From assembly GCA_014193115.1 (NCBI GenBank), contig BJHQ01000005.1, positions 50,982 to 114,981 on the forward strand: DNA of 64,000 nt, given 5' to 3'. Of the stretch, positions 470-26,030 are shown one piece after another (position 1 is the first letter of the stretch; the number at the start of each line of letters is the position of its first letter). Under the pieces are notes generated by a model. The model saw only the letters and a list, made by a program, of their open reading frames with translations, ran no database searches and had not been told where the DNA came from. The translations under genes were made by a program, and so were the position numbers. This stretch comes from Planctomycetota bacterium (GTDB lineage Bacteria; Planctomycetota; UBA11346).

Positions 470-877
470 ATGATCGGAATACCCATGATCCGAAAAACCT
501 TCTCGCTGTACGCGCTGATCCTGATCATCGGCCTTACCGGCTGCATGGCGCGATCCGACGACTTCGTCGCCAGCCGGCTGTACCTTGGCCTCTCGAATAA
601 AGATGGGGAGATTTCCCAGGAGGATATCAGGGTTTTCACCGACCTTGAAGTGACGCCACGGTTCCCCGATGGCCTGACGATCTACCAGACCGAAGGCCGA
701 TGGCGGTCGAAAGATGGCACGATCGGCAAAGAGCGTTCCGTGGTCATCGAGATCATCCACCACGGCACCGCCGAGGATCACGCCCGCATCGAGCAGATCA
801 TCGACCGCTACAAGGCCCGTTTCCGCCAGGAATCCGTGCTGCTGGTGGTGACCCGGCCGACGGTCGAGTTCCGTTGA
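470..877 (+). CDS. DUF3574-family lipoprotein
   Basis: Signal peptide with lipobox LTGC. Conserved DUF3574-like segment YLGLS..GEISQEDIRVFTDLEVTPRFPDGLTIYQTEGRWRS...VVIEIIHHGTAEDHARIEQIIDRYKARFRQESVLLV. Confidence 0.6.
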   Translation: MIGIPMIRKTFSLYALILIIGLTGCMARSDDFVASRLYLGLSNKDGEISQEDIRVFTDLEVTPRFPDGLTIYQTEGRWRSKDGTIGKERSVVIEIIHHGTAEDHARIEQIIDRYKARFRQESVLLVVTRPTVEFR

Positions 878-1410
878 ACGTTCCGCCCGCCACCGGCGAC
901 CGCCGCTTTCAGCCGTATTATTGCGAGGAGAACATCTGGCATCTCGCCGCCGATCCGGCGCTGGGTGAGGGTGAGCGGGCAGCGTTGGTGATCAGTGGAA
1001 CCGGCGGGACCGTCGCGTTCTGGGAGCAACGTGCCGGGCCGGAGAACGGTCCGATCCTGTGGGATTACCACGTCGTGTTGCTGGCCAGCGGTCCGGCGTG
1101 GACCATTTGGGATTTTGATTGCCGCCGTGGCTGTCCGCTGCCTGCGGCGGCTTGGCTGGCAGCCTGTTTTCCATGCCCGGAACGGATCCGGTTGCGGTTT
1201 CAACCCAGATTCGCCTGGTTTTCAGCGGAGGACTGGCGAAACCGATTCAGCAGCGACCGTGCCCACATGCGCGATGCCGCTGGCGGTTGGCTGCAACCAC
1301 CGCCACCCTGGCCGGCAATCCAGGCAGGGGATCTGACACTGGACCTGGCCATCGCAGCAGCCCGCCAAGGATCCGACCTGCGCGGTCTTTCAGAACGCCT
1401 GCGAGTTTGA
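874..1410 (+). CDS. Protein N-terminal glutamine amidohydrolase homolog (Ntaq1/WDYHV1, Nt_Gln_amidase family); probable TTG start
   Basis: YYCEENIWHL matches eukaryotic CYCEENIWKL and GPILWDYHVVLL matches GPVIWDYHVVLL. SDRAHMRDAAGGWLQPPPPWP matches [21 protein letters not shown]. The Cys-His-Asp triad positions are conserved. Confidence 0.7.
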   Translation: MNVPPATGDRRFQPYYCEENIWHLAADPALGEGERAALVISGTGGTVAFWEQRAGPENGPILWDYHVVLLASGPAWTIWDFDCRRGCPLPAAAWLAACFPCPERIRLRFQPRFAWFSAEDWRNRFSSDRAHMRDAAGGWLQPPPPWPAIQAGDLTLDLAIAAARQGSDLRGLSERLRV

Positions 1411-1722: not shown

Positions 1723-3524
1723 GTGCTTGCCGAGCCGCTTCCTGGGTTGAAGAACAGCGTCGCCCGCCCGAGTCGGCTCCGGATCGTGGATCTGCTGATG
1801 ATTCTGGGGATCATCGGTGTGGTGGTCGTTGCCATGTCCAGTCCTGGACATCCGGGCGGTGGTCCGGTCCAGCGCCAGGTCGCCATCGATCTGTCCTTCG
1901 CGGCGCTGCCCGGATACACCCTGGCATCGCTCCTGCGCGGCATGGCCGCCTATGCCATTTCGCTGGTTTTCACCTTGCTGGTCGGCTATTGGGCGGCGAA
2001 GCACGTAGCGTCCTCGCGGGTGCTGCTGCCGCTGCTCGACCTGTTGCAGAGCATCCCGGTGCTCGGATTCATGCCGGTGCTGGTGATCGGGTTGATCACG
2101 CTTTTCCCAGGATCGGACACCGGTCTCGAACTGGCGGCGATCCTGATGATCTTCACCGGGCAGGTGTGGAACATGACGTTCAGCTTCCACCAGAGCCTGA
2201 CTGCATTGCCCAGGGATCAGGTCGAAGCGGCGGAAGCCTTCCGCTTCGGCTGGTGGCGGAAGCTGCGTTGCCTGGAGCTGCCCTTCGCCACCACTGGCCT
2301 GGTCTGGAACAGCATGATGAGCATGGCCGGCGGCTGGTTCTTCCTGATGATCAGCGAATCATTTCGGCTCGGCGATCAGGACTTCAGGCTGCCTGGCATC
2401 GGGTCCTACATGAGCGTTGCCATGGAACGCGGTGATTGGACGGCGATGGTCGCCGGAGCGGCTGCCATGATCGTGATGATCGTGGTGCTCGACCAGCTGC
2501 TGTGGCGGCCGCTGGTGGTGTGGGCGGAACGGTTCCGGAGCGAGGAGTCATCGAGCGTCGTGGCGCAGCGATCGTGGGTCCTCGATCTGCTTCGGCGCTC
2601 GCGTCTCATCACCAGCATCCGCCATCTGCTGGCTCCGCGGAATCCGCAGGTTCCTGAGCGCAGCGGCCGGCCCGCTCTGCCGGTTCAGCCCACTGCGGCA
2701 CCCCAGCCTCGCTTCGGCCTGGCGGCCGTTCCGCCCGGACTAGCTGAGCGCATCGGCCAGTGGTTGGCCTGGGCCGGACTGGTGGTGCTGGTCGCCGCTC
2801 TGGTCTGGGGTTCTTGGGGTCTGATTGGACTGCTGGTGCAGGTCCCATGGAGCGATCCCGGCGAACGGCCAGAGGTCACTGGCTGGTCGGAGATCCTCGG
2901 CGGGACCGGCCTGACCGCACTGCGTGTCCTCGGCACCGTCGTCTTGGGCACGCTCTGGGCCCTGCCGGCCTGGCCATCGGCCGGTCGCCGCGCTGGTCGC
3001 AGTTCCTGCAGCCGGTGGTGCAGGTCGCCGCGTCTTTCCCCGCGCCGATGTTGTTCCCGCTCTGCCTGCTCGCATTCAGGGCCATCGGCCTGCCCCTCGG
3101 GGTCGGGTCGATGCTGCTCATGCTGATGGGCACCCAGTGGTACATCCTGTTCAATGTCATTGCCGGATCCCAGGGCATCCCATCGGATCTGCGGGAATCG
3201 GCCGCATCCTTCCGGTTCAGCCGGTGGCGGCGCTTCTGGACCTTGGAGGTCCCCGCGGTGTTCCCGAACCTGGTTACCGGCTGGGTCACCGCCGCCGGCG
3301 GTGCGTGGAACGCCTCGATCGTCGCTGAATACCTGACCTGGCACGGCGTGGTCACGTCGACGGTGGGCATCGGATCGACCATCAGCCAGGCGACCGCGCA
3401 TGGCGACCATCCCGGGCTGGCTGCCGCAGTGACCTGCATGGCGGTGGTGGTGGTTGCCATCAACAACACCTTGTGGCATCGCCTGTCCGCCCTCGCCAGC
3501 AACAGCTTTTCCCTGAGCAAATGA
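1723..3524 (+). CDS. Fused tandem ABC permease (NitT/TauT family, two BPD_transp_1 domains), interrupted by an apparent -1 frameshift near 2960-2970
   Basis: Two EAA loops: EAAEAFRFGWWRKLRCLELPFA and LRESAASFRFSRWRRFWTLEVPAVFP. Frame 1 reads ...VLGTLWALPA and frame 0 continues GLAIGRSPRWSQFLQPVVQVAASFPAPMLFPL, a typical permease segment. One missing base in ccggcc joins them. Confidence 0.7.
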
Positions 3525-3525
3525 G

Positions 3526-5319
3526 GTGACCGTGGCGATTCCCGATTCGGGCCAGAACCTGTGCGAGGTGGTCGGCGTCTCCCACGAGTTCCGGCAACCC
3601 AATGGCAGCCCGCTCACGGTGCTGCGCGACATCACCCTCGGGATTCGTCCGCGCGAGGTCATCGCCCTGCTCGGCCCGTCGGGCTGCGGCAAATCGACCC
3701 TGCTGCGGATCCTCGCCGGGCTGATCCAGCCGACCCAGGGAACCGTGCTCTATCGCGGAGCTCCCTTTCCCGGGATCAACCCCGGGATGGCGCTAGTCTT
3801 CCAGAGTTTCGCGTTGTTCCCGTGGTTGACGGTGGCTGAGAACATCCGCACGGTCCTGGAGGCTGCCGGCCTGACGCCGGGCGACTGCGCGGAACGGGCG
3901 GCCCATGCGATCAAGCAGGTCGGTCTGATCGGGTTTTCCGGCGCCTATCCCCGGGAACTTTCCGGCGGGATGAAGCAACGGGTGGGCGTCGCCCGGGCCA
4001 TCGCCCTGGATCCGGAAATCCTGTTCCTGGACGAGCCGTTCTGCCATGTCGACGCCCTGACCGCTGAAGGGCTGCGGGCCGAGGTCCTCGATCTGTGGGC
4101 GGCGCCCGGCGGCAATCCGTCTTCGATCCTGGTGGTCAGCCACGACATCGCCGAGGTCGTGCAGATGGCCGACCGCATCGTGCTGCTTGGGGCCAATCCT
4201 GGCCAGGTCCGGCAGATCGTGGCCAATCCCCTGCCCAGGCCACGGGATCTGCGCTCGGCTGCCGCTCAGCAGCTGATCGATCGCATGCATGACCTGATCA
4301 CCGGTCATGAACTGCCCGACCAGCAGCCCGACCAGACCGTGCTGGCGGCGAAGCCTGACCGCTTGGCGTCCCTGCCCTCTGTCCGCGCCAACCAGGTGAT
4401 GGGTCTGCTGGAGATGCTCGACTCGCGGGGTGGTACCGAGGATCTGTTCCGCTTGATCAAGGACACCGGCCACGAGTTCGGATCCTTGATCCAGGTGGTG
4501 AAGGCGGCGGAGCTGCTCGGCTGCGTCACCACTCCGAAGCGCCAGGTGGTGCTGAACGATGACGGCCGGAACCTGGTCCGCGCCGACCTGCCGCATCGGC
4601 CTGCGTTGTGGCGTGCCTGCCTCGAAAAGGTGGCCATCATCAACCAGATGGTCGAATTGGTGCGGCAACGCGGAGCAGTAGGCCTGAGCCGAGAGGTGCT
4701 GGTCGAAGCGCTGATCCTGGCCCTGCCGGGCGAGGACTATGACCAGCAGTTCGCCACCTTGATCGCCTGGTGCCGGATCGGCGAGCTGCTGAATTATGAG
4801 AGGAAAAACGGTGTCGTCTCGATCGCCACACCGACACGCCACATGCAGATTCCCCGGATCGACCTCGCCCCGTACCTGGATCCGCGGCGGATCCTGCTGA
4901 TGGAAGGCCAGCCAGCCAAGGCCGATGTGCTCGTTCGCCTGGCCGGTCTGTTCGCCACTTCGCCGGCGGTCGGCGATGGGCCAGCCTTCTCTGCCGCAGT
5001 CATGTCCCGCGAGGCCCTGGCCAATACCGGTGCCGGCCACCGCGTGGCGCTGCCCCACGCCCAGCTCGATTCGATCAGCGAGGTCGTGGCCGCCATCGCG
5101 GTGATCCGCGCCGGATGCGATTTCGCTGCAGCCGACGGCCAGACCGTGCAGGTCGTGGCAATGATCGCCGCACCGACCCGGGATCGGCCACGCTATTTGA
5201 AATTGCTGTCGGCGATCGCTGCCAGGCTCAGCCAGGAGGAGGTGCGTGAGCGGATCGTGCAGGCCAAGCATCCGGATCAGGTGATCGCGGCGATGGTTGA
5301 TCACGCAGTCCCTGGGTGA
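3526..5319 (+). CDS. ABC transporter ATP-binding protein (NitT/TauT-type) with a C-terminal AAA-associated-like middle domain and a PTS EIIA-2 (IIA-Ntr-like) domain
   Basis: GTG start with GAGG RBS. Walker A GPSGCGKST, signature LSGGMKQRV, Walker B ILFLDEP. C-terminal GHRVALPHAQLDS...VQVVAMIAAPTRDRPRYLKLLSAIAARL resembles PTS_EIIA_2 and retains the PH histidine. Confidence 0.75.
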   Translation: MTVAIPDSGQNLCEVVGVSHEFRQPNGSPLTVLRDITLGIRPREVIALLGPSGCGKSTLLRILAGLIQPTQGTVLYRGAPFPGINPGMALVFQSFALFPWLTVAENIRTVLEAAGLTPGDCAERAAHAIKQVGLIGFSGAYPRELSGGMKQRVGVARAIALDPEILFLDEPFCHVDALTAEGLRAEVLDLWAAPGGNPSSILVVSHDIAEVVQMADRIVLLGANPGQVRQIVANPLPRPRDLRSAAAQQLIDRMHDLITGHELPDQQPDQTVLAAKPDRLASLPSVRANQVMGLLEMLDSRGGTEDLFRLIKDTGHEFGSLIQVVKAAELLGCVTTPKRQVVLNDDGRNLVRADLPHRPALWRACLEKVAIINQMVELVRQRGAVGLSREVLVEALILALPGEDYDQQFATLIAWCRIGELLNYERKNGVVSIATPTRHMQIPRIDLAPYLDPRRILLMEGQPAKADVLVRLAGLFATSPAVGDGPAFSAAVMSREALANTGAGHRVALPHAQLDSISEVVAAIAVIRAGCDFAAADGQTVQVVAMIAAPTRDRPRYLKLLSAIAARLSQEEVRERIVQAKHPDQVIAAMVDHAVPG

Positions 5320-5420
5320 GCGGCCTCCCTGCAAATAATCTTGAAAAAGAGTTGGCGGTGGGACGCAGGCCTTGATCGGTCCAGAACCTTGGGGAACTAG
5401 CGCTTGCCCGGGTCCGCGCA

Positions 5421-6800
5421 TTGCCTATCGCCAACGCCGTGGACCAGAACACGCCGATTCCTTGCGGGCCGCCAGGTCTCGACCAGCTGCTGGCGCGGCT
5501 GGGATCGCAGCCGCAGGAGCAGGACTGGGCCGAACTCGTCCGGTGCATGGCCAAGCCGGTGCACACGGTGGCCTTTCGGATCTGCGGCGATGCGAGCTTG
5601 GCGGAGGATGTCTCCCAGGAGACCTTCCTGGCGGTGGCCCGGGCCCTGCCCCGCTACCGCAGCCAGGGCGATCTCCAGGCCAGAGCCTGGATCATGCGCA
5701 TCGCCGCCAATCGGGCGATCTCCATCACCGGGCGGCAGCCGCGGCATCGGCGCATCTTCACTGACGATCTCGCAGCGGCCGGTCCTGACGCGCCGTCAGG
5801 GGAGCTGCTCGACGCGGTGCGCAGCGAGATCTGCGACCTGCCAGACCGGTACCGGCTGCCTATCGTCCTGCGTTTCCTCGACGGCAGGAATTACGGAGAG
5901 ATCGCCAGCGTCCTGACCTGGACCGAGGCGCGGGCGCGAAAAGCCGTGGAACGCGGCTTGGACCTGTTGCGCAGCCGGCTGGCGCGCCGGGGCGTCCCGG
6001 CGTCACTGGCGCTGTGCGCGGCGTGGTGCAGCCAAGCAGGCGCGAGCGAGCCTCCGACGCCCCTGGCTTTGACCGGCGCCCTCGCCCGCCGGCCGGAGGT
6101 CACCGCCTGGCCGTTGACCAGCTCAGTCTTTGGCGCAGTCATCGGCTCGGCCATCGTCGCCGTCCTGGCGACGACGGTGGCGATCATCACGACCAGCAAT
6201 CCCAGCGCGGCGCCAAGCTCCACCACGGTAGGCACCCCGGCCCTCGAACGCTTTATCGCGGCGTTCCGGGCTGATCATCCTGCGACGCGGCGGCGCGACA
6301 CCCTGGAGCGGTTTGAGGCTGGAACTTGGCAGATGGAGGGTCCATGGCGAACGCTTGGCGATGGGACAGCCGCCATCGATCTGCCCGCGAGCAAGGATTG
6401 GACCGAGGCTCGGCTGGTCCTCGACCTCCCGCTCGACCTGGAACACGGCAACGCTCAATTGCTGGCGATCCGATGCGACCAAGCGGTTGAGGATGGTCGA
6501 TTCGCCATTGGGCTAGCCGGATTCGTCGCAAACAAGCAGGTGTTCGACTACCAGGTGGGCCGGGGCGATCGCCAAGCCGCCGAGTCGTTCTCTCGTGTTG
6601 CCGGAAAACTGGCGATGGCGATCCGGATCGACCGGCAAGGAGCGAGGCTCCTGGTGGATGAACGGAGCGATCTGCCCACCCGCAGTCTCGCCGAGCTTGG
6701 GGTATCTGCCGATCGCATCCGCCTGGGCGTGGTGGTTGCCGCCCGTGGCGCCGCCGTCGCCGGGCACATTCAGGTGGTGCAGATCCTGACCGCGCCGTAA
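5421..6800 (+). CDS. ECF (sigma-70 family) sigma factor fused to a C-terminal transmembrane helix and a ~230-aa extracytoplasmic domain
   Basis: Sigma region 2 (ETFLAVARALPRYRSQGDLQARAWIMRIAANRAIS) and region 4 HTH (YGEIASVLTWTEARARKAVERGLDLL). A TM helix VFGAVIGSAIVAVLATTVAIITT follows. The ORF runs a further ~230 aa with no stop. Confidence 0.65.
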   Translation: MPIANAVDQNTPIPCGPPGLDQLLARLGSQPQEQDWAELVRCMAKPVHTVAFRICGDASLAEDVSQETFLAVARALPRYRSQGDLQARAWIMRIAANRAISITGRQPRHRRIFTDDLAAAGPDAPSGELLDAVRSEICDLPDRYRLPIVLRFLDGRNYGEIASVLTWTEARARKAVERGLDLLRSRLARRGVPASLALCAAWCSQAGASEPPTPLALTGALARRPEVTAWPLTSSVFGAVIGSAIVAVLATTVAIITTSNPSAAPSSTTVGTPALERFIAAFRADHPATRRRDTLERFEAGTWQMEGPWRTLGDGTAAIDLPASKDWTEARLVLDLPLDLEHGNAQLLAIRCDQAVEDGRFAIGLAGFVANKQVFDYQVGRGDRQAAESFSRVAGKLAMAIRIDRQGARLLVDERSDLPTRSLAELGVSADRIRLGVVVAARGAAVAGHIQVVQILTAP

Positions 6801-7055
6801 GTCGATTTGGATGACGCAGTTGGAGAACTGCCAAGGCGCCAAACGTCACACGGAAGAAGGCTGAAGGCAGCGCCATCCGCACCTGGTCAGTCCTCCAGCC
6901 AGCGGAGCCTTTCCCAGGTTTTTCCTGATGTCTTGGCGTCTTGGCGGTTCATCTGCTGGCTCGCGGCGTAACCTGTTTAGTGTTTGAGACACCCGGTTGC
7001 GATGCCTGGGCTTGGCCGTCACGCCGACCCGGCCTCCAGGGATTGAGCATCCTGA

Positions 7056-10000
7056 ATGGAGCTCCCCATGCGACTGAGCCGTTTTCCGGTTTGGATCTAC
7101 CTCGTATTTGCCCTGGCCCTGATGGCGGCGATCCCTGCGGTGGAGACCGTCCCCTTTGGTACGGGCCGACTGATCGGCGACGTCGGAGTCGACGGCGTCC
7201 GCCTCGACTGGAACCTCGCGGCGGAAGGGGGCTATCTGGTCGAACGGCGCTCGGATGGCCGGTTCGTGGAGGTTGCTCGGCTTCCCGCCGGTGCCACCGG
7301 AATGACCGATCCGGTTCGCTTCGGGCAGTTCCGCTGGCGGGTCACAGCACTCGATCGCCGTGGTCGGCCAGAGTCGCGATCGGCCGAGCTGGTGCTGGCT
7401 GTGGAGGTGGTGCAGCGGGATGCAGGCGGAACCGTGCTGCGCTACGGCGATACGCCCAGATCAGATCTGGTTGGCGCCACTGCGTCGCCGCTGGCCGCTG
7501 CGGGGCTCACCGACCCGGCCGTTGCTCAAGCCAATGCCGTCACTTTGAGCGGCGATTACCGCATCGACGCCCTGCTCGGCGATGCCCTGCAACCTGGATT
7601 TACGCCGGTGTCCGATCTGAAATTCGCCTTCTCCACCGCCCCCGGCACCGTCCCCAGCGAAGGGATCAAGGCGAATTACCGCCTGATCTTCGCACGGTTG
7701 GCCCAGATCATCCCAGTCACTTGCACCGAGGTCGCCACCGGCGGCAACATCCTCATCAAACTCGCCCCGGTCGGCTATGGGATGGCAGGCCCCGGCCTGG
7801 TCATGCTCAACGCGAGCTACGACCGCACCGGCGACACCAATGGCTTTCGCAATCCGCCAGGATCCCACGGCTTCCAGGCCCTGGTCCATGAACTCGGGCA
7901 CGCCCTTGGGCTCAAGCATCCCTTCGACGGCAACATCCACCTTCCTCCGGCCGAGGATACCCAGGCGCACACGGTGATGACCTACAATTTCTCCGCCAAT
8001 GAACCCGGGACGTTCATGCCCTACGATATCCTGGCGCTGCAATACCTGTACGGGAGGCCGACCGCCGGGACCGGGGGCACCTATGCCTTCTCGACCCCGT
8101 GGACCTATCAGCGCAACGGGCAGACCTGGTTCGCAACGACCTGGACCACCCGCCAATGCCTCTGGGGGACCGGGGCAGACGTGCTCGATTTTTCTGGACT
8201 GGCGGCAGGGTCCTACCGGTTCGATCTCAATCCCGGAGGCCGCCTGGGAACCACCGGTGCGGTATCGGCAAGCACCTTCACCAACGGCACGGTTCTGGCC
8301 TACGGTTCATCGTTTCCGGCCATCGTCACCTCCATCGGCAATGACGAGGTGACGCTGAGCAGCCCAGCCAATCTGATCAGGGGCTATGTCGCCGGACGCA
8401 CGTGCGGGGCCGACCGCATGCTCAGCGGTCGTCCGGACGATCGCCTCGACCTGTCGGCCTTTCCCCGCAGTGCGGTGCAACGGACTCGTCAGGGCGACGA
8501 CCTGCGCCTCGACCTGCCGAGCGGGATCGGTTCGATCACCATACCCGGGTTCTATGCCGCGGGCTGGATCCAGGTGGTCTATGCCGACAGCCATCCGCCG
8601 GTGGCCTCCAGCCAGGATTTGCAGGCGATCGAGAACCTGGCGCTGCCGATCACCCTGGCCGCCAGCGATGCGGATGGAGACGCACTGGCTTGGACGGTGC
8701 AGGCGCCAGCACGGGGCCGCCTGCTCGGGACGGCGCCTTCGCTGATCTATCTGCCGCCGGCCAATTGGACTGGAACCGACACGGTCGCGTTTTTCGTGAA
8801 CGATGGCAAGGAAACGTCGAACACTGCCCAGGTGTCGATTGCCGTCCGTGCACCTGGCGTTACCCCGACCGTGGAAGCCGGACCCGACCGCTCCACCAAC
8901 CGCTTCACGCCCATCACCCTGTCCGGCACCGCCACCGACGCATCGGGTCAGGCGCTGTCGCTGACCTGGTCCCAGGACTCCGGCCCTGAAAAGACGGTGT
9001 TCACCAGCCCGGTTGGCGGGTCGGTGACCGCCGCTTTCACCGCGGTCGGCACCTACCAGCTGCGCCTGAGCGCCACCAATGGCACCGCTACTGCCAGCGA
9101 CACCACCACCGTCACCGTGGTTCCCAGCCAAAATCCCGGGGTCGTTTCGTTCACCGCCGCGACCGTTGCGGTGCGCGAAGCCTCCGGACGGGTCACGGTC
9201 ACCGTCCAACGCACTGGTGGGGATCACGGCCAAGCGTCGATCTCATGGAGGACGGTGGCGATCACGGCCACCGAAGAAGATTACATGCGCGGCGTTGGTG
9301 GCATCGTCAGCTGGAATGACCAGGATGACGAGACCCAACAGATTGACCTCTCCATCTACGACAACCTTCTCGTCGATGGTCCGCGTACCTTCCGGTTTGA
9401 ACTCTATCGGCCCACCGGCGGGGTCGTGCTCGGATCACCGGCAACCCTGCTGGCGACCATCGTCGATGATGACGGGGTCAACCGGCCGCCGACCGCCACG
9501 TCGGCGAGCGGGAGCGTGGTTCAAGACGGCTCCCTGCCCTTGGTGCTGACCGCATCCGATCCGGACAACGACCCGTTGAGCTGGACGGTTCAAGCTCCGG
9601 CCCACGGCGTCCTTGCGGGCACTGCGCCGCATCTGACGTACACCCCGGACAGTGGCTACCGCGGCACGGATGCCGTGGTCTTCAGAGTTTCCGATACCCG
9701 GGCCCAATCGCCCAGCGCGACCGTGGCCATCACCGTGCAGGCGGTGAACCGTCCGCCCAGGCCAAGCGCCGGTCCCGACCGGAAGCTGGTCCTGCCCGCC
9801 TCCATCGTCCTGGCCGGAGGCGGCTCTGATCCGGATGGGGATTCGCTGGCGTGGTCGTGGACCAAGGTCAGCGGGCCAAGCGCGCTCACCATTGCCAGCC
9901 CGACCGATCCGCAGTCGTCGGCCACATTCGCCGGCGCCGGTACCTACCGGCTCCGCCTGGCCGCCTCCGACGGCACCGCCACCGTCGCCGACGAGGTCGT

Positions 10001-13000
10001 CTTCATCACCAGGACGAACACTGCTCCAGTCGCCAATGCAGGTCCTGATCGGGTGCTGTCGAGCCCAGGAGCAGTGACAATCAACGGGGAAGGACCTGAT
10101 GCTGATGGCGATCCCGTGCAGGCGCTGTGGACCCAGGTTTCTGGTCCGGCTGCCGCGGTGATCGACCAGCCGCGTCAACTGACAACGTCCATCCGCTTTC
10201 CAGTGACCGGGATCTACCGGCTGGTGTTGACGGTGGCCGACGGCCTGGCAACGACCAGTGACGAGGTGGTGGTCTCGGTGGGGAATCCTGGCGTGGCCCT
10301 GGATACTATTGAGTCGAAGGGCAATACCTCGTTGCTGAAGCATCCCATTGACAAGAAATACTTCGCCCGACCAGGAACGGGGACGCCGGTCCAGATCAGC
10401 AATCTGGGTCAGCAGATTTACGAAGGCATATATTCCGGCTGGACCCTGCTCGCGGCAGAAAATCTCAACAGCGAAAATCGTGCGCTCTGGCGCAACGAAT
10501 CAGGCCATTACCTGCACATCTGGCATCTGAATGCAAATTGGCAATGGACTTCCTCAGAAGGGCAGTGGAACTTCGGGACGGCCGAGGCGAACGCCCTCGA
10601 GGTCGCATTCCAAATTGATGCTGACGGGAATGGGACGATCGGCGGACCAGTGAATCAAGCCCCGACGTTCACCACCCATCCGCCGAACGCCGTGGTGACC
10701 GCAGGTCAGACCGCGACGTTCACCGTCGTCGCCAGCGGTACCCCGGCGCCGACGTACCAGTGGCAATCCGCACCGGCCACGGGCGCGTTCACCAACATCA
10801 GCGGCGCGACCGCAGCGAGCTACACCACGTCGGCGACGACGCTGGCGCAGAGCGGTACCCGCTTCCAGGTCATCGCGACCAACAGCGTGAGTGCGGTGAC
10901 TTCGGCCGTGGCGACGTTGACGGTCAATCCCGCCCCGGTCGGCCCGACGTTCACCACCCATCCGGGGAACGCCGTGGTGACCGCAGGTCACACCGCGACA
11001 TTCGCCGTCGTCGCCAGTGGCACCCCGACGCCGACGTACCAGTGGCAATCCGCACCGGCCTCGGGCGCGTTCGCCAACATTAGCGGCGCGACCGCGGCGA
11101 GCTACACCACGCCGGCGACGACGCTGGCGCAGAGCGGTACCCGCTTTCAGGTCATCGCGACCAACAGCGTGAGCGCGGTAACTTCGTCGGTGGCGACGTT
11201 GACGGTCAATCCCGCCCCGGTCGGCCCGACGTTTACCACCCAACCGGTGAACGCCGCGGTGACCGCAGGTCAAACCGCGACGTTCACCGTCGTCGCCAGC
11301 GGCACCCCGGCGCCGACGTACCAGTGGCAATCCGCACCGGCCTCGGGCGCGTTCGCCAACATTAGCGGCGCGACCGCGGCGAGCTACACCACGCCGGCGA
11401 CGACCTTGGCGCAGAATGGTACCCGCTTCCAGGTCATCGCGACCAACAGCGTGAGTGCGGTGACTTCGTCGGTGGCGACGTTGACGGTCAACCCCGCCCC
11501 GGTCGGCCCGAGGTTTACCACCCAACCGGTGAACGCCGCGGTGACCGCAGGTCAGACCGCGACGTTCACCGTCGTCGCCAGCGGCACCCCGGCGCCGACG
11601 TACCAGTGGCAATCCGCACCGGCCACGGGCGCGTTCACCAACATCAGTGGCGCGACCGCGGCAAGCTACACCACGCCGGCGACGACCTTGGCGCAGAACG
11701 GTACCCGCTTCCAGGTCATCGCGACCAACAGCGTGAGCGCGGCAACTTCGTCGGTGGCGACGCTGACGGTCAATGTGACCGCGGGCGCCAATCTGGTGCT
11801 GAACTGGACCTTGGACGAGTCCAGCGGTACGGGCGCTGCCGATGCTTCCGGCCGCGGCAATACGGGTGCGGTGGGCGGCGGCGCGACCTGGGTCGCCGGC
11901 AAGGTCGGCGGGGGGCTCCAGTTCGATGGGAACAGCGGGGCCGTGGTCGCCACAAACGTAGGCGGCCTGCCAAGCGGCAATCAGCCGCACACCCTGGCGG
12001 CCTGGGTGAAAGTGACGGCCCTGCCAGCGAAACGAGCCTGGATCGCCCTGCTGGGGGACGTGGGCAGTGGTGCGCACCATTGGCTGATCAACAGCAATGG
12101 TGTTACCCAGTTCGGGGTGTGGAACGAGAACCAGGTGGCTCCGGTGCTCGGCGTCGGGACCTGGAAACACCTCGCCGTCACCTTCGATGGCGCGACCCAG
12201 ACCGGCTACGTCGATGGGGTGGCGATTGGCAGCACGGCAGCGACCTACAACCTCAAAGGCGTCTCCCTGAAGGTGGCCAGGGCGGTGGATTGGGAGAACG
12301 CATTTAACGGCCTGGTGGATGACGTCCGCGTCTACACCAGAGCCTTGACCGCCAGCGAAGTCTCGGCGCTGGCAGGCGCGACCCTCAACACCGGTCTAGT
12401 GCTCAACTGGAGACTGGACGAGACCAGCGGTGGCGTCGCAGCCGATTCTTCTGGCCGCAGCAATTCAGGGGTGGTAGGCGGAGGCGTGACCTGGACGGCC
12501 GGCAAGCTCGGTGGGGCGCTCCAGTTCGATGGAGTGAACGGCGCAGTGGCCACGACCAGCCTGGGAGGGCTGCCGACCGGCAACCAGGCGCACACCTTGG
12601 CGGCGTGGGTGAAGGTCACTGCCCTACCGGCGAACCGCGCCTGGATCGCCCTGCTCGGCGATGCGGGGGTCGGAGCGCACCACTGGTTGATCTACCGCTC
12701 CGGAGCCACGCAGTTCGGAGCGTGGAGCTCCGGCCAGGTCACGCCTGCGCTTGGCGTCGGCACCTGGAAGCACCTCGCCGTTACCTTCGATGGCACCACG
12801 TTGACCGGATACATGAATGGAGTGGCGATCGGAACCACCGCGGCGACCTTCAGTCTCAAGGGCGTATCGCTAAGCCTGGCCCGAGCCCAGGAGGGTGAAA
12901 ACGCCTTCAAAGGCCAGGTGGATGACGTCCGCGTCTACGCTCGGGCCTTGACTGCCAGCGAGATTTCCGCCCTTGCCGGAACGACTGCGCAAGCGGCCGC

Positions 13001-13145
13001 CCTCGCCTTCACCGAGCCGGTGAACGAAACGGAAACTTCCACCGGCATCGGTGGAGGCAGCAGCGGCTGCGGGCTTGGCAGTGGATTGGCCCTGATCGGC
13101 CTTGCATTCGGGATCGCCCTGGGAGGACGAAGGAGGTGGAGCTGA
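7056..13145 (+). CDS. Secreted multidomain metzincin (M10/serralysin-like) protein with cadherin/PKD/Calx-beta/Ig/LamG domains and a MYXO-CTERM-like tail
   Basis: Signal peptide. VHELGHALGLKHPFDG (HEXXHXXGXXH), Met-turn VMTYNF and YDILALQYLYG. PKD-like and Big/cadherin-like domains, a Calx-beta domain, four near-identical ~94-aa Ig repeats and two LamG-like domains. C-terminus SSGCGLGSGLALIGLAFGIALGGRRRWS. Confidence 0.8.
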   Translation: MELPMRLSRFPVWIYLVFALALMAAIPAVETVPFGTGRLIGDVGVDGVRLDWNLAAEGGYLVERRSDGRFVEVARLPAGATGMTDPVRFGQFRWRVTALDRRGRPESRSAELVLAVEVVQRDAGGTVLRYGDTPRSDLVGATASPLAAAGLTDPAVAQANAVTLSGDYRIDALLGDALQPGFTPVSDLKFAFSTAPGTVPSEGIKANYRLIFARLAQIIPVTCTEVATGGNILIKLAPVGYGMAGPGLVMLNASYDRTGDTNGFRNPPGSHGFQALVHELGHALGLKHPFDGNIHLPPAEDTQAHTVMTYNFSANEPGTFMPYDILALQYLYGRPTAGTGGTYAFSTPWTYQRNGQTWFATTWTTRQCLWGTGADVLDFSGLAAGSYRFDLNPGGRLGTTGAVSASTFTNGTVLAYGSSFPAIVTSIGNDEVTLSSPANLIRGYVAGRTCGADRMLSGRPDDRLDLSAFPRSAVQRTRQGDDLRLDLPSGIGSITIPGFYAAGWIQVVYADSHPPVASSQDLQAIENLALPITLAASDADGDALAWTVQAPARGRLLGTAPSLIYLPPANWTGTDTVAFFVNDGKETSNTAQVSIAVRAPGVTPTVEAGPDRSTNRFTPITLSGTATDASGQALSLTWSQDSGPEKTVFTSPVGGSVTAAFTAVGTYQLRLSATNGTATASDTTTVTVVPSQNPGVVSFTAATVAVREASGRVTVTVQRTGGDHGQASISWRTVAITATEEDYMRGVGGIVSWNDQDDETQQIDLSIYDNLLVDGPRTFRFELYRPTGGVVLGSPATLLATIVDDDGVNRPPTATSASGSVVQDGSLPLVLTASDPDNDPLSWTVQAPAHGVLAGTAPHLTYTPDSGYRGTDAVVFRVSDTRAQSPSATVAITVQAVNRPPRPSAGPDRKLVLPASIVLAGGGSDPDGDSLAWSWTKVSGPSALTIASPTDPQSSATFAGAGTYRLRLAASDGTATVADEVVFITRTNTAPVANAGPDRVLSSPGAVTINGEGPDADGDPVQALWTQVSGPAAAVIDQPRQLTTSIRFPVTGIYRLVLTVADGLATTSDEVVVSVGNPGVALDTIESKGNTSLLKHPIDKKYFARPGTGTPVQISNLGQQIYEGIYSGWTLLAAENLNSENRALWRNESGHYLHIWHLNANWQWTSSEGQWNFGTAEANALEVAFQIDADGNGTIGGPVNQAPTFTTHPPNAVVTAGQTATFTVVASGTPAPTYQWQSAPATGAFTNISGATAASYTTSATTLAQSGTRFQVIATNSVSAVTSAVATLTVNPAPVGPTFTTHPGNAVVTAGHTATFAVVASGTPTPTYQWQSAPASGAFANISGATAASYTTPATTLAQSGTRFQVIATNSVSAVTSSVATLTVNPAPVGPTFTTQPVNAAVTAGQTATFTVVASGTPAPTYQWQSAPASGAFANISGATAASYTTPATTLAQNGTRFQVIATNSVSAVTSSVATLTVNPAPVGPRFTTQPVNAAVTAGQTATFTVVASGTPAPTYQWQSAPATGAFTNISGATAASYTTPATTLAQNGTRFQVIATNSVSAATSSVATLTVNVTAGANLVLNWTLDESSGTGAADASGRGNTGAVGGGATWVAGKVGGGLQFDGNSGAVVATNVGGLPSGNQPHTLAAWVKVTALPAKRAWIALLGDVGSGAHHWLINSNGVTQFGVWNENQVAPVLGVGTWKHLAVTFDGATQTGYVDGVAIGSTAATYNLKGVSLKVARAVDWENAFNGLVDDVRVYTRALTASEVSALAGATLNTGLVLNWRLDETSGGVAADSSGRSNSGVVGGGVTWTAGKLGGALQFDGVNGAVATTSLGGLPTGNQAHTLAAWVKVTALPANRAWIALLGDAGVGAHHWLIYRSGATQFGAWSSGQVTPALGVGTWKHLAVTFDGTTLTGYMNGVAIGTTAATFSLKGVSLSLARAQEGENAFKGQVDDVRVYARALTASEISALAGTTAQAAALAFTEPVNETETSTGIGGGSSGCGLGSGLALIGLAFGIALGGRRRWS
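10650..11780 (+). repeat. Intragenic tandem repeat, ~282 bp x4, >90% DNA identity, encoding Ig-like domains
   Basis: PTFTT(H/Q)P.NA.VTAGQTATFTVVASGTP.PTYQWQSAPA.GAF.NISGATAASYTTPATTLAQ.GTRFQVIATNSVSAVTS.VATLTVNPAPVG is repeated four times. Unit starts are near 10662, 10941, 11226 and 11508. Confidence 0.85.
11780..12975 (+). repeat. Intragenic duplication of a ~590-bp LamG-like (Laminin_G_3) domain, two diverged copies
   Basis: LVLNW.LDE.SG...AAD.SGR.N.G.VGGG.TW.AGK.GG.LQFDG..GAV.T...GGLP.GNQ.HTLAAWVKVTALPA.RAWIALLGD.G.GAHHWLI appears twice. Confidence 0.8.
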
Positions 13146-13280
13146 ACCTCGAACTGGAGCCAGATCTGGCCAGGTCGGGTAGGGTTCTGACCGCTGCTAA
13201 ATGGGTGTTTGAGACACCCGGTCGTTGAGCAAGAGCTTGGCCGTCACGCCGACCCGGCCTCCTGGGATTGAGCATCCTGA

Positions 13281-16200
13281 ATGGAGCTCCCCATGCGACT
13301 GAGCCGTTTTCCGGATTGGATCTACCTCGTATTTGCCCTGGCCCTGATGGCGGTGATCCCTGCGGTGGAGACCGTCCCCTTCGGTACGGGCCGATTGATC
13401 GGTGACGTCGGAACCGACGGCGTCCGCCTCGACTGGAACTTCGCGTCGGAAGGGGGCTCCCTGGTCGAGCGGCGCTCGGATGGCCGGTTCGTCGAGGTCG
13501 CTCGGCTTCCGGCCGGTGCCACTGGAATGACCGATCCGGTTCGCTTCGGGCAGTTCCGCTGGCGGGTCACCGCCCTCGATCGCAGTGGTCGACAGATGGT
13601 GCGTTCGGCCGAACTGGTGCTGGCGGTGGAGGTGGTGCAGCAGGATGCTGGCGGAACTGTGCTGCGCTACGGAGATACGCCCCGACCAGGCCAGTTTGGT
13701 GCCGCTGCGTCGCCGCTGGCCGCTGCAGGACTCACTTCCCCGGCCGCGGCCCAAACGGATACCGTCACCATGAGCGGCGATTACCGCATCGATGCCCTGC
13801 TTGGTGATGCCCTTCAGGCCGGATTCATCCCGATCCGGACCTGGACCTACTCCTTCGCCACCGCTTCCGGCAGCGTCCCCAGTGATGCGATCAAGGCCAG
13901 TTATCGTCTGATCTTTGCAAACATGCCCCAGATCATCCCTGCCACCTTCACCGAGGTCGCCATCGGCGGCAACATTGGCATCGGACTCGGCCCAGCCGAC
14001 TATGCGATGGGCGGCGGCGGTTCGATCATCCTCAACCCAAGTTATGACCGCACCGGGGACACCAACGGCTTCCGTAATCCACCAGGTTCGCACGGCTTCC
14101 AGGCCCTGGTCCACGAACTCGGGCATGTCCTCGGACTCAAGCATCCCCATGACGGCAATATCCACCTGCCGCCTGCGGAAAATTCCCAGGCCTACACGGT
14201 GATGACCTACAATTTTTCGGCCAATGAACCGGCGACCTTCATGCCCTACGATGTCATGGCCTTGCAGTACCTGTACGGCAAGCCGGCGGTCGGCGCCGCG
14301 AGCACCTATGTCTTCTCGACCCCATGGACCTTCAGGCGCAACGGGCTGACCTGGTTCGCAACGACCCTGACCACCCGCCAGTGCATCTGGGGGACCGCTG
14401 CCGACGTGCTCGATTTTTCGGCTCTGGCGGCTGGATCCTACCGCTACGACCTCAATCCCGGAGGCCGCCTGGGAACCACCAGTGCGGTGTCGGGAACGAC
14501 CTTTTCCAGCGGCACCGTCCTGGCCCAAGATTCATCCTTCGCTTCCATCATTACCTCCATCGGCAATGACGAGGTGACGTTGAGCAGCCCAGCCAACCTG
14601 ATCAGCGGTTTTGTCTCCGGACGTTCGTGCGGAGCAGACCGCCTGCTTGGCGGCCGTCCGGACGATCGCCTCGACCTGTCGGTGTTCTCGCGCAGCGCGG
14701 TGCTGCGGACCCGTCAGGGCGACGATCTGCGCCTCGACCTGCCAGGCGGGATCGGGTCGATCACCATCGCCGGATTTTATGCCGCGGGGTGGGTCCAGGT
14801 GATTTATGCCGACAGCCATCCACCGGTGGCCTCCAGTCTGAATCTGCAGGCGGTCGAGAACCAGGCCCTGCCGATCACCCTGGTTGCCAGCGATGCGGAT
14901 GGCAATCCCTTGAGCTGGACGGTGCAGGCACCGGGACGGGGCCGCCTGATCGGGGCCGCGCCGTCGCTGATCTACCTGCCGCCAGCCAATTGGACTGGCA
15001 CCGATACTTTCACGTTTTCGGTGAATGATGGCCTGGATTCCTCCAATACTGCCCAAGTATCGATCACCGTCCTTCCGCCTGGCTCCATCCCGTCGGTGGA
15101 GGCCGGACCCGATCGCACCACCAATCGCTTCTTACCCATCGCCCTGTCCGGCACCGCCACGAACGCGTCCGGTCAGGTCCTGGCTCTGTCCTGGTCGCAG
15201 GACTCCGGCCCCGCCCAGACCGTTTTCAGCAGCCCGGCGGGCGGGTCGGCGACTGCTGCCTTCGCGGCCGTTGGCACGTACCACCTGCGCCTGACCGCCA
15301 CCAACGGCTCCGCCACCGCTAGCGACACCACCACCGTGACCGTGGTTCCCAGCTCAAATCCTGGCGTCGCCTCTTTCACCGCCGCGACCGCTGCGGTGAG
15401 CGAATCGTCCGGGCGAGTTACCGTTACCATCCAACGCACCGATGGGGATCACGGTCAGGCCTCGATCTCATGGAGAACGGTGGCGATCACCGCCACCGAA
15501 GACGATTATATCCACGGCATTGGCGGCACCGTCACATGGAATGACCAGGATGACGAGGCCCAGCAGTTCGACCTCTCCATTTACGACAACGACCTCGTCG
15601 ATGGTCCGCGTACGTTCCGGTTTGAACTCTATCGACCCACCGGCGGGGTCGTGCTCGGATCGCCGGCGATTCAGGTGGTGACCATAGTCGATGATGATGG
15701 CGTCAACCGGCCGCCGACTGCCACGTCGGCGAATGCGAGCGTACTCCAGGATGGCGTTCTATCCTTGGTGCTGACCGCCTCCGATCCAGATCATGACCCG
15801 TTGATCTGGACCGTGCGGCCGCCTGCTCATGGCGTCCTGACCGGCACCCCACCCAACCTGAGCTATGCACCTGCCCACGGATATCGCGGCACGGACGCCG
15901 TGGTCTTCTCGGTCTCCGATACCCGGGTCCAGTCGCCCAACGCGACCGTGGCCATCACCGTGCAGGCAGTGAACCATCCGCCTGTGGCGAGCGCTGGTCC
16001 CGACCGGAATCTGGTCCTGCCCGCTGCCATCGCCTTGGCTGGAGGCGGTTCAGATCCGGATGGCGATTCGCTGACCTGGTCGTGGACCAAGGTCAGCGGG
16101 CCAAGCGCGCTCACCATTGCCAATCCGACCGATCCGCGTTCCTCGGCCACGTTCGCCGCCGTCGGCACCTACCGGCTCCGCCTGACCGCCTCAGACGGCT

Positions 16201-16679
16201 CTGCCACCGCCGCCGACGAGGTCGTCATCGCCATCAGGGCCAACACCACCCCGGTCGCGAATGCGGGTCCCGATCTGGTTCTGTTGGGTCCAGGATCAGC
16301 CACGATCGGCGGGCAGGCCCCTGATGCTGATGGCGATCCGGTGCAGACTTTATGGACTCAGGTCTCCGGCCCAGTTGTCGCGGTGATCGACCAGCCGCGC
16401 CAACTGGCGACTTCCATCCGCTTCCCGGTCACCGGAATCTATCGGCTGTTGTTGACCGTGACCGACGGCCTGGCTTCGACCAGCGATGAGGTGGTCGTAT
16501 CGGTTGCCGTCCGGCGCATGATCGAGATTCGCCTGGTCCCCAATGGGGTGGATGCCGCCATCCAACTGGACGGCCGAAATCCGGATCAGGTCAGGCCTGA
16601 CGGCACTGCCCAGTTCACCACCTCGGCTTCATCCAACCACGTGGCATCCTTCCTGACGCCTCCGAGAGGAAAGAACTGA
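13281..16679 (+). CDS. Truncated paralog of the upstream metzincin protein: protease, cadherin-like, PKD and Calx-beta domains only, with no Ig/LamG region and no C-terminal tag
   Basis: About 85% aa identity to residues 1-1075 of the 7056..13145 product, including HELGHVLGLKHPHDG. Homology ends near 16497 and a unique ~60-aa tail follows. The ~75 bp upstream of the ATG are almost identical between the two genes. Confidence 0.75.
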   Translation: MELPMRLSRFPDWIYLVFALALMAVIPAVETVPFGTGRLIGDVGTDGVRLDWNFASEGGSLVERRSDGRFVEVARLPAGATGMTDPVRFGQFRWRVTALDRSGRQMVRSAELVLAVEVVQQDAGGTVLRYGDTPRPGQFGAAASPLAAAGLTSPAAAQTDTVTMSGDYRIDALLGDALQAGFIPIRTWTYSFATASGSVPSDAIKASYRLIFANMPQIIPATFTEVAIGGNIGIGLGPADYAMGGGGSIILNPSYDRTGDTNGFRNPPGSHGFQALVHELGHVLGLKHPHDGNIHLPPAENSQAYTVMTYNFSANEPATFMPYDVMALQYLYGKPAVGAASTYVFSTPWTFRRNGLTWFATTLTTRQCIWGTAADVLDFSALAAGSYRYDLNPGGRLGTTSAVSGTTFSSGTVLAQDSSFASIITSIGNDEVTLSSPANLISGFVSGRSCGADRLLGGRPDDRLDLSVFSRSAVLRTRQGDDLRLDLPGGIGSITIAGFYAAGWVQVIYADSHPPVASSLNLQAVENQALPITLVASDADGNPLSWTVQAPGRGRLIGAAPSLIYLPPANWTGTDTFTFSVNDGLDSSNTAQVSITVLPPGSIPSVEAGPDRTTNRFLPIALSGTATNASGQVLALSWSQDSGPAQTVFSSPAGGSATAAFAAVGTYHLRLTATNGSATASDTTTVTVVPSSNPGVASFTAATAAVSESSGRVTVTIQRTDGDHGQASISWRTVAITATEDDYIHGIGGTVTWNDQDDEAQQFDLSIYDNDLVDGPRTFRFELYRPTGGVVLGSPAIQVVTIVDDDGVNRPPTATSANASVLQDGVLSLVLTASDPDHDPLIWTVRPPAHGVLTGTPPNLSYAPAHGYRGTDAVVFSVSDTRVQSPNATVAITVQAVNHPPVASAGPDRNLVLPAAIALAGGGSDPDGDSLTWSWTKVSGPSALTIANPTDPRSSATFAAVGTYRLRLTASDGSATAADEVVIAIRANTTPVANAGPDLVLLGPGSATIGGQAPDADGDPVQTLWTQVSGPVVAVIDQPRQLATSIRFPVTGIYRLLLTVTDGLASTSDEVVVSVAVRRMIEIRLVPNGVDAAIQLDGRNPDQVRPDGTAQFTTSASSNHVASFLTPPRGKN

Positions 16680-17970: not shown

Positions 17971-18090
17971 CCAGCCGGCTTGAACCAGCCAGTCGGCTTG
18001 GTTCAGGGCCATCCGGCTTGGTTCAGGGCCATCCGCCGTGGATCAGGGCCATCCGCCGTGGATCAGGGCCATCCGCCGTGGATCAGGGCC
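17971..18090. repeat. Tandem repeat of a 20-bp unit, about 6 copies, with the 3 distal copies identical
   Basis: atccgccgtggatcagggcc occurs three times, preceded by atccggcttggttcagggcc, agtcggcttggttcagggcc and ccagccggcttgaaccagcc. The array abuts the stop codon of the 18083..19096 gene and lies upstream of the flavoprotein gene. Confidence 0.85.
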
Positions 18091-19096
18091 AGCCGGCCAG
18101 GACCAGCTTGCCAGTGACGCCACCGGCTTTGATCTGGTCGTGGGCCTTCATCACGTTGGCGGCGGTGATCTGACCGAGGTTCGCGGTCATGGTCGAACGC
18201 AGCACGCCGGCATCGACCAGCGCGGAAACTTCGTCCAGCAGATGGCCCTGGGCAGCCAGGTCGTCGGTCGCGAACTGCGACCGGGTGAACATGAATTCCC
18301 AGTGCAATGAGCCGCTTTTTCGCTTCAGCAGCCGGGCATCAATGGATTGGGGGTCGTCGATCAGGGCGAGGTGCCCCTGGGGCGTCAGGGCCTCGACCAA
18401 CGCTGGGAAATGCTGCTGGCTGCCGGCGCAGGCCACGATCAGGTCGACCGTTGGGAAGCCCAAGGCCGTGAGCTGGGCGACCAGCGGCTGGGTGTGGTCG
18501 ATGACGTGATGGGCACCATGGGCCAGGACCCACTCCCGACCGGCCGGACGCGACGTCGTGGCGATGACGATGAGGGACGTCAGCCGCCGGGCGAGCTGGG
18601 TGAGGATCGATCCGACCCCGCCGGCGGCTCCGAGCACCAGCAGCGAGCGCTGCCGGCCCGATTTGCCCGGCGCCACGCCGAGCCGCTCGAAAAGCAGTTC
18701 CCAGGCGGTGATGGAGGTCAGCGGCAAGGCAGCGGCCGCGGCGAAATCCAAGGATTTCGGCTTGTGCCCGACCAGCCGCTCATCCACCGCGTGCAATTGG
18801 CTGTTCGCCCCGGGGCGATTCAAGGCACCGGCGTAGAAGACCTCGTCGCCGACTGAAAAACGCCGCACCGCTGCGCCGACCTTGACCACCATGCCGGCCG
18901 CATCCCAGCCGAGGATTTTGGTCTCCCCGGCCGGCGGCACGAACGATGGGCTGGGTCGGACCTTGGTGTCCACCGGATTGACCGAGATGGCGCGGACCTC
19001 GACCAGCAGATCGCGCTCGCCGGGAACCGGGTCGGGCACATCGGTGTCCACCAGGGCGGGGGCAGGAAGATCGCGATGGAATCCGACGGCGCGCAT
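18083..19096 (-). CDS. Zinc-type alcohol dehydrogenase / quinone oxidoreductase-like protein (MDR superfamily)
   Basis: LLVEVRAISVNPVDTKVR, LGWDAAGMVVKVG and the GAAGGVGS Rossmann motif, with YhdH/Qor-like length and layout. Confidence 0.75.
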   Translation of the reverse strand: MRAVGFHRDLPAPALVDTDVPDPVPGERDLLVEVRAISVNPVDTKVRPSPSFVPPAGETKILGWDAAGMVVKVGAAVRRFSVGDEVFYAGALNRPGANSQLHAVDERLVGHKPKSLDFAAAAALPLTSITAWELLFERLGVAPGKSGRQRSLLVLGAAGGVGSILTQLARRLTSLIVIATTSRPAGREWVLAHGAHHVIDHTQPLVAQLTALGFPTVDLIVACAGSQQHFPALVEALTPQGHLALIDDPQSIDARLLKRKSGSLHWEFMFTRSQFATDDLAAQGHLLDEVSALVDAGVLRSTMTANLGQITAANVMKAHDQIKAGGVTGKLVLAGWP

Positions 19097-25206: not shown

Positions 25207-25328
25207 GGGTCAATCCTGCGGTCCAGGACCGGCCAAGGCCAGCCCAGGGAATCGGCTGCGGGATCTGGTCATGCGCAGGCGAGCGGCAGACAGCGCCAGC
25301 CAGCGGCAACCTCCGCGCAGCCAGCTGC

Positions 25329-25865: not shown

Positions 25866-26030
25866 GGGCGGCGATGGAGCCTATCCTGGACTTGGGCTTA
25901 CAAGCCTTGGCAGGTTCCGCCACGGCGGTCCCTGGCTGACATGGGAACGAAATTTGTGTACCCATCGAGTGAGTCACCCGGTGTGACACCCGCCATGCAA
26001 CGACTGGAACGCCCTCAGGTGCCAGATACC

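Follow-up and report, generated by a model that had tools for sequence, protein, structure and literature searches.

An extracytoplasmic function sigma factor of a Planctomycetota bacterium fused to a membrane helix and an orphan, probably lectin-like domain

Here we describe a gene of a Planctomycetota bacterium (GenBank assembly GCA_014193115.1) that encodes in one polypeptide an extracytoplasmic function (ECF) sigma factor, a transmembrane (TM) helix and a C-terminal domain. The gene occupies positions 5421..6800 (+) of a 64,000-nucleotide stretch of contig BJHQ01000005.1 (positions 50,982 to 114,981), which we refer to as the window and whose numbering is used throughout. As judged by its sequence, the protein is a divergent member of a planctomycetal type in which an ECF sigma, a linker opening with the residues RRG and a TM helix are followed by a variable ectodomain. 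What is new in it is one further extension, an orphan domain that is probably lectin-like, together with a shortened linker.

Sigma factor, membrane helix and ectodomain in one reading frame

The open reading frame (ORF) 5421..6800 (+) encodes 459 amino acids (aa) from a TTG at 5421, and its exact GenBank counterpart is GDY12712.1, ‘hypothetical protein LBMAG53_15900 [Planctomycetota bacterium]’, an annotation that is corrected by the present analysis. GenBank starts at TTG 5421; gene callers and the orthologue described below prefer GTG 5439, which gives a product of 453 aa. We regard GTG 5439 as the more likely start, and it is the more plausible one if transcription begins inside a conserved block immediately upstream (5387..5438). 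The original prediction, made from the DNA letters, had read sigma regions 2 and 4, the TM helix and the C-terminal domain as parts of a single ORF, and this layout is present as described according to ORF analysis, Pfam, NCBIfam and hydropathy. It had also noted that a separate anti-sigma gene is lacking, and we likewise find no ORF of anti-sigma size adjoining the sigma gene. The part following the helix, first put at ~230 aa, measures 201 aa.

The N-terminal part is a complete ECF (group 4) sigma factor. Region 2 (residues 39-101; 5535..5723, +) matches Sigma70_r2 (PF04542) with an E-value of 3.6e-13 and 49.5 bits against a gathering cutoff of 24, and region 4 (residues 132-184; 5814..5972, +) is recognized by both Sigma70_r4_2 (PF08281, 27.7 bits against 25.7) and Sigma70_r4 (PF04545, 26.8 bits against 24.1). 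The general NCBIfam model for ECF sigma factors, TIGR02937, is also passed (49.2 bits, cutoff 42.9). Regions 2 and 4 were the only Pfam matches at E<=1, so that regions 1.1 and 3 are missing. NCBIfam equivalog and subfamily models all scored far under their cutoffs, and among these the Planctomycetes/Verrucomicrobia sigma subfamily models TIGR02989 and TIGR02984 were tried as assignments and rejected. In the AlphaFold2 (AF2) model both regions are helical and confidently predicted, with a predicted local distance difference test score (pLDDT) of ~90 for the sigma2 helices (residues 17-105) and of 82-94 for the sigma4 helices (residues 127-189), and the connection between them is short and predicted to be disordered (residues 109-121). 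The N-terminus of the protein does not resemble a signal peptide.

Following the sigma domain is a cytoplasmic juxtamembrane linker (residues 189-235; 5985..6125, +) that opens with the family-invariant RRG and leaves 44 aa between this motif and the TM helix. It carries a pair of cysteines, C199-x3-C203 (CAAWC), that is kept in both orthologues, together with P214..L217, and at 77% identity to the linker of the orthologue it is about as conserved as the sigma domain. Against Pfam at E<=10 the linker has no match, including zf-HC2; there is no H-x3-C-x2-C motif, and its C-x3-C comes without a histidine. AF2 gave no confident docking of the linker onto the sigma domain in the manner of an anti-sigma fold-back, and with a pLDDT below 50 for linker and helix (35-45 for residues 194-235) the model speaks neither for nor against such an element. 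The single TM helix that the original prediction had placed after the sigma regions is borne out by hydropathy: VFGAVIGSAIVAVLATTVAIITT (residues 236-258; 6126..6194, +) is the sole 19-residue window with a Kyte-Doolittle value >1.6 (peak 2.35), and the orthologue also has one such segment. Its N-terminal flank contains two Arg and has a net charge of +1 (+2 in the orthologue), the C-terminal flank has a net charge of 0, and the first 15 residues past the helix are uncharged. From these flanking charges we infer an orientation with the N-terminus inside and the C-terminus outside. The sigma domain can function only in the cytoplasm, which would place the 201 C-terminal residues on the outer side of the cytoplasmic membrane.

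This ectodomain begins with a presumably extracytoplasmic spacer rich in Ser, Pro and Thr with short predicted helices (residues 259-301; 6195..6323, +), the segment least conserved relative to the orthologue (47% identity). It continues with an orphan all-beta domain of ~155 aa (residues 302-457; 6324..6791, +), predicted to be a ConA-like beta-sandwich of the type found in lectins and carbohydrate-binding modules (CBMs), which is 61% identical to that of the orthologue at a synonymous divergence (dS) of 0.88. The AF2 model of the ectodomain, built from the two orthologues, has a mean pLDDT of 58 and a predicted TM-score (pTM) of 0.60; residues 302-457 are modelled as all-beta, and the spacer is poorly predicted. 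Foldseek ranks the lectin-like domain of Emp47p, CBM27, CBM28 and CBM11 at the top for this model, with probability 1.0, E-values down to 3e-5 and, for a model of pLDDT 58, TM-scores of ~0.4. The fold class can thus be called a lectin/CBM-like beta-sandwich with moderate confidence; a place for the modelled domain in any particular lectin or CBM family is unproven. Sequence searches gave no relatives. Searched with phmmer against 1.84 billion cluster representatives, the C-terminal domain retrieved its own cluster and two short matches in giant immunoglobulin (Ig)-repeat proteins, which were summed over repeats and which we regard as spurious. A word-indexed search with this domain (E<=10) missed even its own protein, which an exhaustive search found at E 9e-126, and negatives of the indexed search are not to be trusted for this domain. 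There was no Pfam match to the domain at E<=10, and a profile search of the PDB returned nothing better than E 1.4. No sequence method supported membership in families of the ConA-like clan (LamG, DUF1080, legume lectin, CBM). Homology of the ectodomain to the giant protein encoded downstream, or to the LamG domains of that protein, was considered and rejected (best BLASTP E 0.28; hhalign probability 0.2% against LamG domains).

The original prediction had named beforehand, as its refutation, a frameshift of sequencing or assembly that artificially joins separate sigma and anti-sigma genes. To the extent that assembled sequences can decide this in place of reads, the scenario is excluded; we consider it next to impossible and found nothing in its favour. 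The identical 453-aa product is encoded on contigs of three separately assembled samples with the same neighbours in all, one of these contigs being 202 kb long, and the 459-aa GenBank entry from a metagenome-assembled genome (MAG) has the same frame from the upstream TTG. Moreover, an orthologue of 454 aa from an unrelated sequencing run (P0002) is 66% identical and collinear over 98% of its length, and its sigma domain, linker, helix and C-terminal domain follow one another in a continuous frame with no stop across the junction. GC content at third codon positions is uniformly high (80% for the gene, 0.86 in its first half and 0.74 in its second), and the fused layout is standard in at least 111 relatives. 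Between the orthologues, for which dS ranges from ~0.5 to 1.1 by segment, the ratio of nonsynonymous to synonymous divergence (dN/dS) is 0.30 in both the sigma domain and the linker, 0.33 in the beta domain, and somewhat higher in the spacer (0.41) and the helix (0.47). These ratios indicate purifying selection along the entire protein, which is kept as one unit, and they argue that the C-terminal part is a selected domain and not read-through.

A divergent member of a planctomycetal family

The best non-orthologous matches to the protein are confined to the sigma region (about 28-37% identity) and are of planctomycetal ECF type; the C-terminal parts of these relatives are WD40, TolB-like or HlyD-like, or belong to no known domain. 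Among GTDB species-representative genomes we found no orthologues, only distant matches of 28-33% identity confined to the sigma domain. A family profile spanning sigma domain, linker and helix identified at least 507 proteins at E<=1e-10 among 8000 scored candidates, and the protein described here scores 290 bits against it; the few profile-matched proteins that carry organism names come from Gemmataceae, Paludisphaera and Planctomycetaceae, that is, from Planctomycetota. A hydrophobic helix follows the RRG in 111 of the 114 RRG-bearing relatives, at a median distance of 65 aa (range 27-73) compared with 44 here, and the tail past the helix has a variable length with a median of 164 aa. The architecture had been thought rare, a view that does not survive these numbers, and published surveys report many such proteins (PMC7826278, PMC7671368). 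Planctomycetal ECFs with unrelated C-terminal extensions are in fact abundant and have arisen by duplication and fortuitous insertion (Pinto and da Fonseca 2020, PMC7671368), and ECF57 averages 5.3 copies per planctomycetal genome (Casas-Pastor 2021, PMC7826278).

Within the aligned clade R189, R190, G191 and L217 are invariant, and a common ‘RL.RRG’ ends sigma4 and is followed by a linker that starts with ..P..L... The planctomycetal ECF57, or former ECF01-Gob, type and its neighbours share with our protein this RL.RRG, the P..L linker start, the one TM helix and the variable C-terminal domain, as well as the Planctomycetota host and the absence of an adjacent anti-sigma gene. The protein differs from the ECF57 type in having a linker of 44 aa and not ~65, a predicted orphan beta-sandwich and not WD40, no pre-TM motif and no ECF57 cysteines. 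The pre-TM motif EGVLKxM...KLK occurs in 52/114 relatives compared with 0/2 orthologues, and WD40-like repeats were not found in the extension (Pfam at E<=10; the model is a single beta-sandwich). ECF57 is characterized by a conserved cysteine in each of sigma2 and sigma4 (PMC8999054); here both are missing, the sigma2 GVC position being an Ala and the sigma4 position an Arg (VLRFLDG vs VLCxLEG). It is from these comparisons of sequence that we place the protein as a divergent member of its type.

Membrane-tethered sigma factors of other phyla offer informative parallels. IutY of Pseudomonas putida, a sigma/anti-sigma hybrid of group ECF243, has the same order in one polypeptide, with an ECF sigma in the cytosol, one TM helix and a C-terminal domain in the periplasm. 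Its activation, the only one worked out experimentally for a fused sigma, proceeds by Prc trimming followed by RseP cleavage (PMC5411451). The FecR-type anti-sigma/periplasmic domain of IutY and the TonB-dependent receptor that is its partner in iron signalling have no counterpart here, as we see no FecR-like domain and no receptor gene, and the two sigma domains belong to different clades. In the actinobacterial groups ECF52 (SCO4117), ECF48 and ECF53, too, one or two TM helices connect a sigma domain to a long extension outside the cytoplasm (PMC8999054). In SCO4117 the TM helix is accompanied by a Pro-rich region and a carbohydrate-binding domain, and proteolytic activation has been proposed (PMC8999054); these two elements parallel the predicted Ser/Pro/Thr spacer and lectin/CBM-like sandwich of our protein. 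ECF48, ECF52 and ECF53 differ in phylum and sigma clade, and have their own zinc-finger (ZAS-like) anti-sigma module before the membrane in contrast to the 44-aa linker found here. The periplasmic sensor domain of RetS, a histidine-kinase-type protein, is an analogy in function and fold only, with no sequence similarity. Polysaccharide sensing by the RsgI/SigI systems of clostridia is a further analogy, again with no sequence similarity, in which the sensor is a separate anti-sigma protein, unlike the direct fusion described here. Tethered sigmas had been called mechanistically unresolved in the original prediction. For the planctomycetal type this stands, as we found no experimental study of any member; for tethered sigma fusions in general it goes too far, given that IutY has been worked out and a mechanism for the ECF52 member SCO4117 has been proposed (PMC5411451, PMC8999054).

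Neighbouring genes, candidate promoters and other features of the window

The sigma gene lies directly upstream of two paralogous protease/adhesin-like genes, as had been noted from the sequence, and the pair is now seen to be a tandem duplication whose products each carry an HExxHxxGxxH motif along with Ig, PKD, cadherin and Calx-beta domains. Giant surface protein 1 (7068..13145, +; 2025 aa from ATG 7068), a putative member of the regulon, has a signal-like N-terminus and Big_9, PKD, Calx-beta, W_rich_C, four Ig and two LamG domains. Its paralogue, giant surface protein 2 (13293..16679, +; ~1128 aa), has Big_9, PKD, cadherin and Calx-beta domains and an HExxH region that weakly matches Peptidase_M10 (E 6e-4); of the two, only giant gene 1 encodes LamG domains. 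In the orthologous contig (L001) the sigma gene is again followed by a giant gene, whose product is 71% identical at its N-terminus and whose leader is conserved. The C-terminus of giant protein 1 (13020-13145) consists of GGGSSGCGLGSG, a hydrophobic stretch and GGRRRWS and resembles a GlyGly-CTERM/MYXO-CTERM/PEP-CTERM sorting tag; NCBIfam models for C-terminal sorting tags did not match the giant proteins, and the tag is missing from the paralogue and from a third giant protein (38247-46253).

The duplication starts at 6980 and 13205, 88 bp before the true start codons at 7068 and 13293, so that each giant gene carries a copy of the same 88-bp leader (6980..7067, + and 13205..13292, +), the first of which is conserved in the orthologous contig (L001 1460-1538) and is a candidate target promoter. 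The 26-mer just 5' of the two starts is identical. All three copies of the leader contain a conserved CACCCGGT-N19-CGTCACGCC, in which the spacer is variable in sequence and fixed in length, and which could hypothetically serve as the promoter of the giant genes. CGTC is a common core of ECF -10 elements. The leaders also hold short palindromes (GGTGTnnnnnACACC; CCCGG..CCGGG) that may be an operator or a structure of the 5' untranslated region; an Rfam scan found a single tRNA in the window and gave no match to the leaders. Upstream of the sigma gene itself, a block of ~45 bp (5387..5438, +) is conserved between the two genomes as CCTTGG..AAC.AG.GCTTGCC.....CCGCGCATTGCCTATCGC, and probably holds its promoter and 5' end. 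A GGAAC is indeed found at 5393-5397, where the original prediction had seen a possible ECF -35 element. This role is not supported: GGAAC-N15-18-CGC occurs 26 times against 20.9 expected (16/100 shuffles reach 26), and the orthologue has CAAAC. A shared autoregulatory motif in the sigma upstream region and the giant leaders was also considered, and was rejected on finding that shuffled sequences reach the best match. No sigma-70-type promoters or intrinsic terminators were found in 5200-7200.

The sigma gene and giant gene 1 are separated by a 267-bp spacer, in which the sole ORF (54 aa) lies inside a 175-bp stretch missing from the orthologous contig. This stretch (6801-6975) reaches from the sigma stop codon to the giant-gene leader, and could represent a small element, mobile or regulatory, or the scar of a rearrangement. 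It contains a 16-mer, TGGCGGTTCATCTGCT (6942-6957), that in L001 sits upstream of the sigma gene (L001 1-16), a match not reached by any of 300 shuffles. On the upstream side, two ABC permease ORFs in the same orientation as the sigma gene are followed by an ABC ATPase fused to AAA_assoc_C and PTS EIIA(2) domains (3526-5319, +). The permease appears as a pair of BPD_transp_1 ORFs (1723-3126 and 2760-3524, +) that overlap in different frames, perhaps through a frameshift or a programmed overlap. Further upstream, ORF 700-1410 (+) matches Nt_Gln_amidase (PF09764, E 1.3e-30), a match that is unexpected in a bacterial MAG, this family being best known from the eukaryotic N-degron pathway.

Elsewhere in the window there is a second, stand-alone ECF sigma of ~177 aa (25332-25865, -) that scores 72 bits against the family profile and 80.5 bits against TIGR02937. 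It is divergently oriented to a Ser/Thr protein kinase (ORF 24723-27398, +; kinase domain at residues 459-620), and the long N-terminal part of this ORF, which overlaps the second sigma gene, is probably not real. The layout resembles that of kinase-associated planctomycetal ECF groups. A 658-aa ORF after the second sigma (23230-25206, -) has no Pfam match and could encode its regulator. Two repeats were also observed: a 20-bp unit, GCCATCCGSCKTGGWTCAGG, in ~6 head-to-tail copies (17988-18107) between an HI0933-like flavoprotein gene and the 3' end of a zinc-dehydrogenase gene, and a repeat of ~165 nt in two near-identical copies (97% and 92%) ~236 nt apart (29246-29643 and 29653-29737, -) that adjoins the only tRNA gene of the window.

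Models of activation and their consequences

By analogy with the tethered sigmas discussed above, we propose that the protein may be a transmembrane signalling sigma that senses a ligand outside the membrane, is released by proteolysis and activates the adjacent giant genes, a proposal we consider about equally likely to prove right or wrong. The ectodomain would lie outside the cytoplasmic membrane and bind a glycan or a surface or periplasmic protein, with tethering keeping the sigma from productive use. Upon a signal, a site-1 protease would trim the ectodomain and a site-2 (RseP-type) protease would then cut the helix, as in IutY, leaving a free sigma with a short tail. The released sigma would direct RNA polymerase to its regulon, for which the two tandem giant genes, by way of their duplicated 88-bp leaders, are the best candidates. 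A doubtful extension of this proposal is that the lectin-like ectodomain monitors the surface state or a glycan ligand of the adjacent LamG-bearing giant proteins and switches their transcription without an anti-sigma domain.

Several observations weigh against the proposal of sensing and proteolytic release. The linker has no recognizable anti-sigma domain, which leaves inhibition of the tethered form unexplained. The annotated ORFs of the window include no protease gene that we could identify, nor is a cleavage motif known. The fold call comes from a model of pLDDT 58 built on two sequences, and lectin membership is backed by no sequence method. The assignment of the regulon follows from adjacency in two fairly close genomes (dS ~0.67). 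CCCGGT-N18-20-CGTC is found only in the two leaders, yet these 2 occurrences compare with 1.5 expected in the GC-rich window, and the sigma upstream region has no motif in common with the giant leaders beyond chance, the best being a weak GCCCGGnTCCGnGnATTG that is reached by 6/300 shuffles.

If the sigma is never released, it might act where it is anchored, recruiting RNA polymerase at the membrane as ToxR or CadC would, and the ectodomain would switch its activity by binding a ligand or by oligomerizing. The lack of both a recognizable anti-sigma domain and a nearby protease gene would fit such a tethered and active sigma, as would the short (44 aa) linker, which is predicted to be flexible, and presumed targets that are very large exported proteins encoded next door, whose transcription would then be coupled to the membrane. 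However, we found no report of a sigma working while anchored in the membrane, IutY, the one characterized fused sigma, needs proteolytic release (PMC5411451), and a linker that is conserved amid unrelated ectodomains fits a common module for processing or inhibition at least equally well; we think this mode of action unlikely. The same conservation of the linker, which equals that of the sigma domain (77% identity, dN/dS 0.30), could also point to a switch like those of ECF41, ECF238 or the class II anti-sigma domains. The linker with C199-x3-C203 would then fold back on sigma2/sigma4 and serve as an intramolecular anti-sigma or as a redox or metal switch, which the ectodomain would modulate through the helix with no cleavage. 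Regulatory extensions at the C-terminus that make contact with the sigma core have been described in ECF41, ECF42 and ECF238 (PMC7826278, PMC8999054), the CAAWC cysteines are present in both orthologues, and the RRG and L217 are invariant in the clade. Nevertheless AF2 gave no confident packing of residues 194-235 (pLDDT 35-45), the cysteine pair is found in two sequences only and is absent from the wider family alignment, and transcription would still need a released or mobile sigma; in our estimation a fold-back linker is quite unlikely.

The fusion could lastly be a by-product of evolution, in which a sigma module was duplicated into the gene of a membrane or secreted protein and the C-terminal part is non-sensory and only anchors or silences the sigma. 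In Planctomycetes unrelated extensions do arise by duplication and insertion (PMC7671368), and the C-terminal domain is an orphan that belongs to no known ligand-binding family. On the other hand the beta domain (dN/dS 0.33) is under purifying selection equal in strength to that on the sigma domain, it is kept in frame in both lineages, and its model is compact, with a fold of the kind usual in binding modules. A functionless tail is disfavoured because dN/dS is low, and we judge an origin as a mere by-product very unlikely.

Taken together, these results do not overturn current views of ECF sigma factors; the catalogue of planctomycetal extensions grows by one orphan domain. We found no study of how tethered planctomycetal sigmas are silenced or activated, and the protein described here offers a convenient test case, being short, with no recognizable anti-sigma module, with what is modelled as a compact ectodomain of binding type, and with candidate targets and their duplicated leaders adjacent. 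If its ectodomain does monitor the giant proteins, inhibition and release by a short RRG linker would differ from all characterized ECF mechanisms, and the protein would provide a minimal model for a large and wholly unstudied family of planctomycetal sigma factors.

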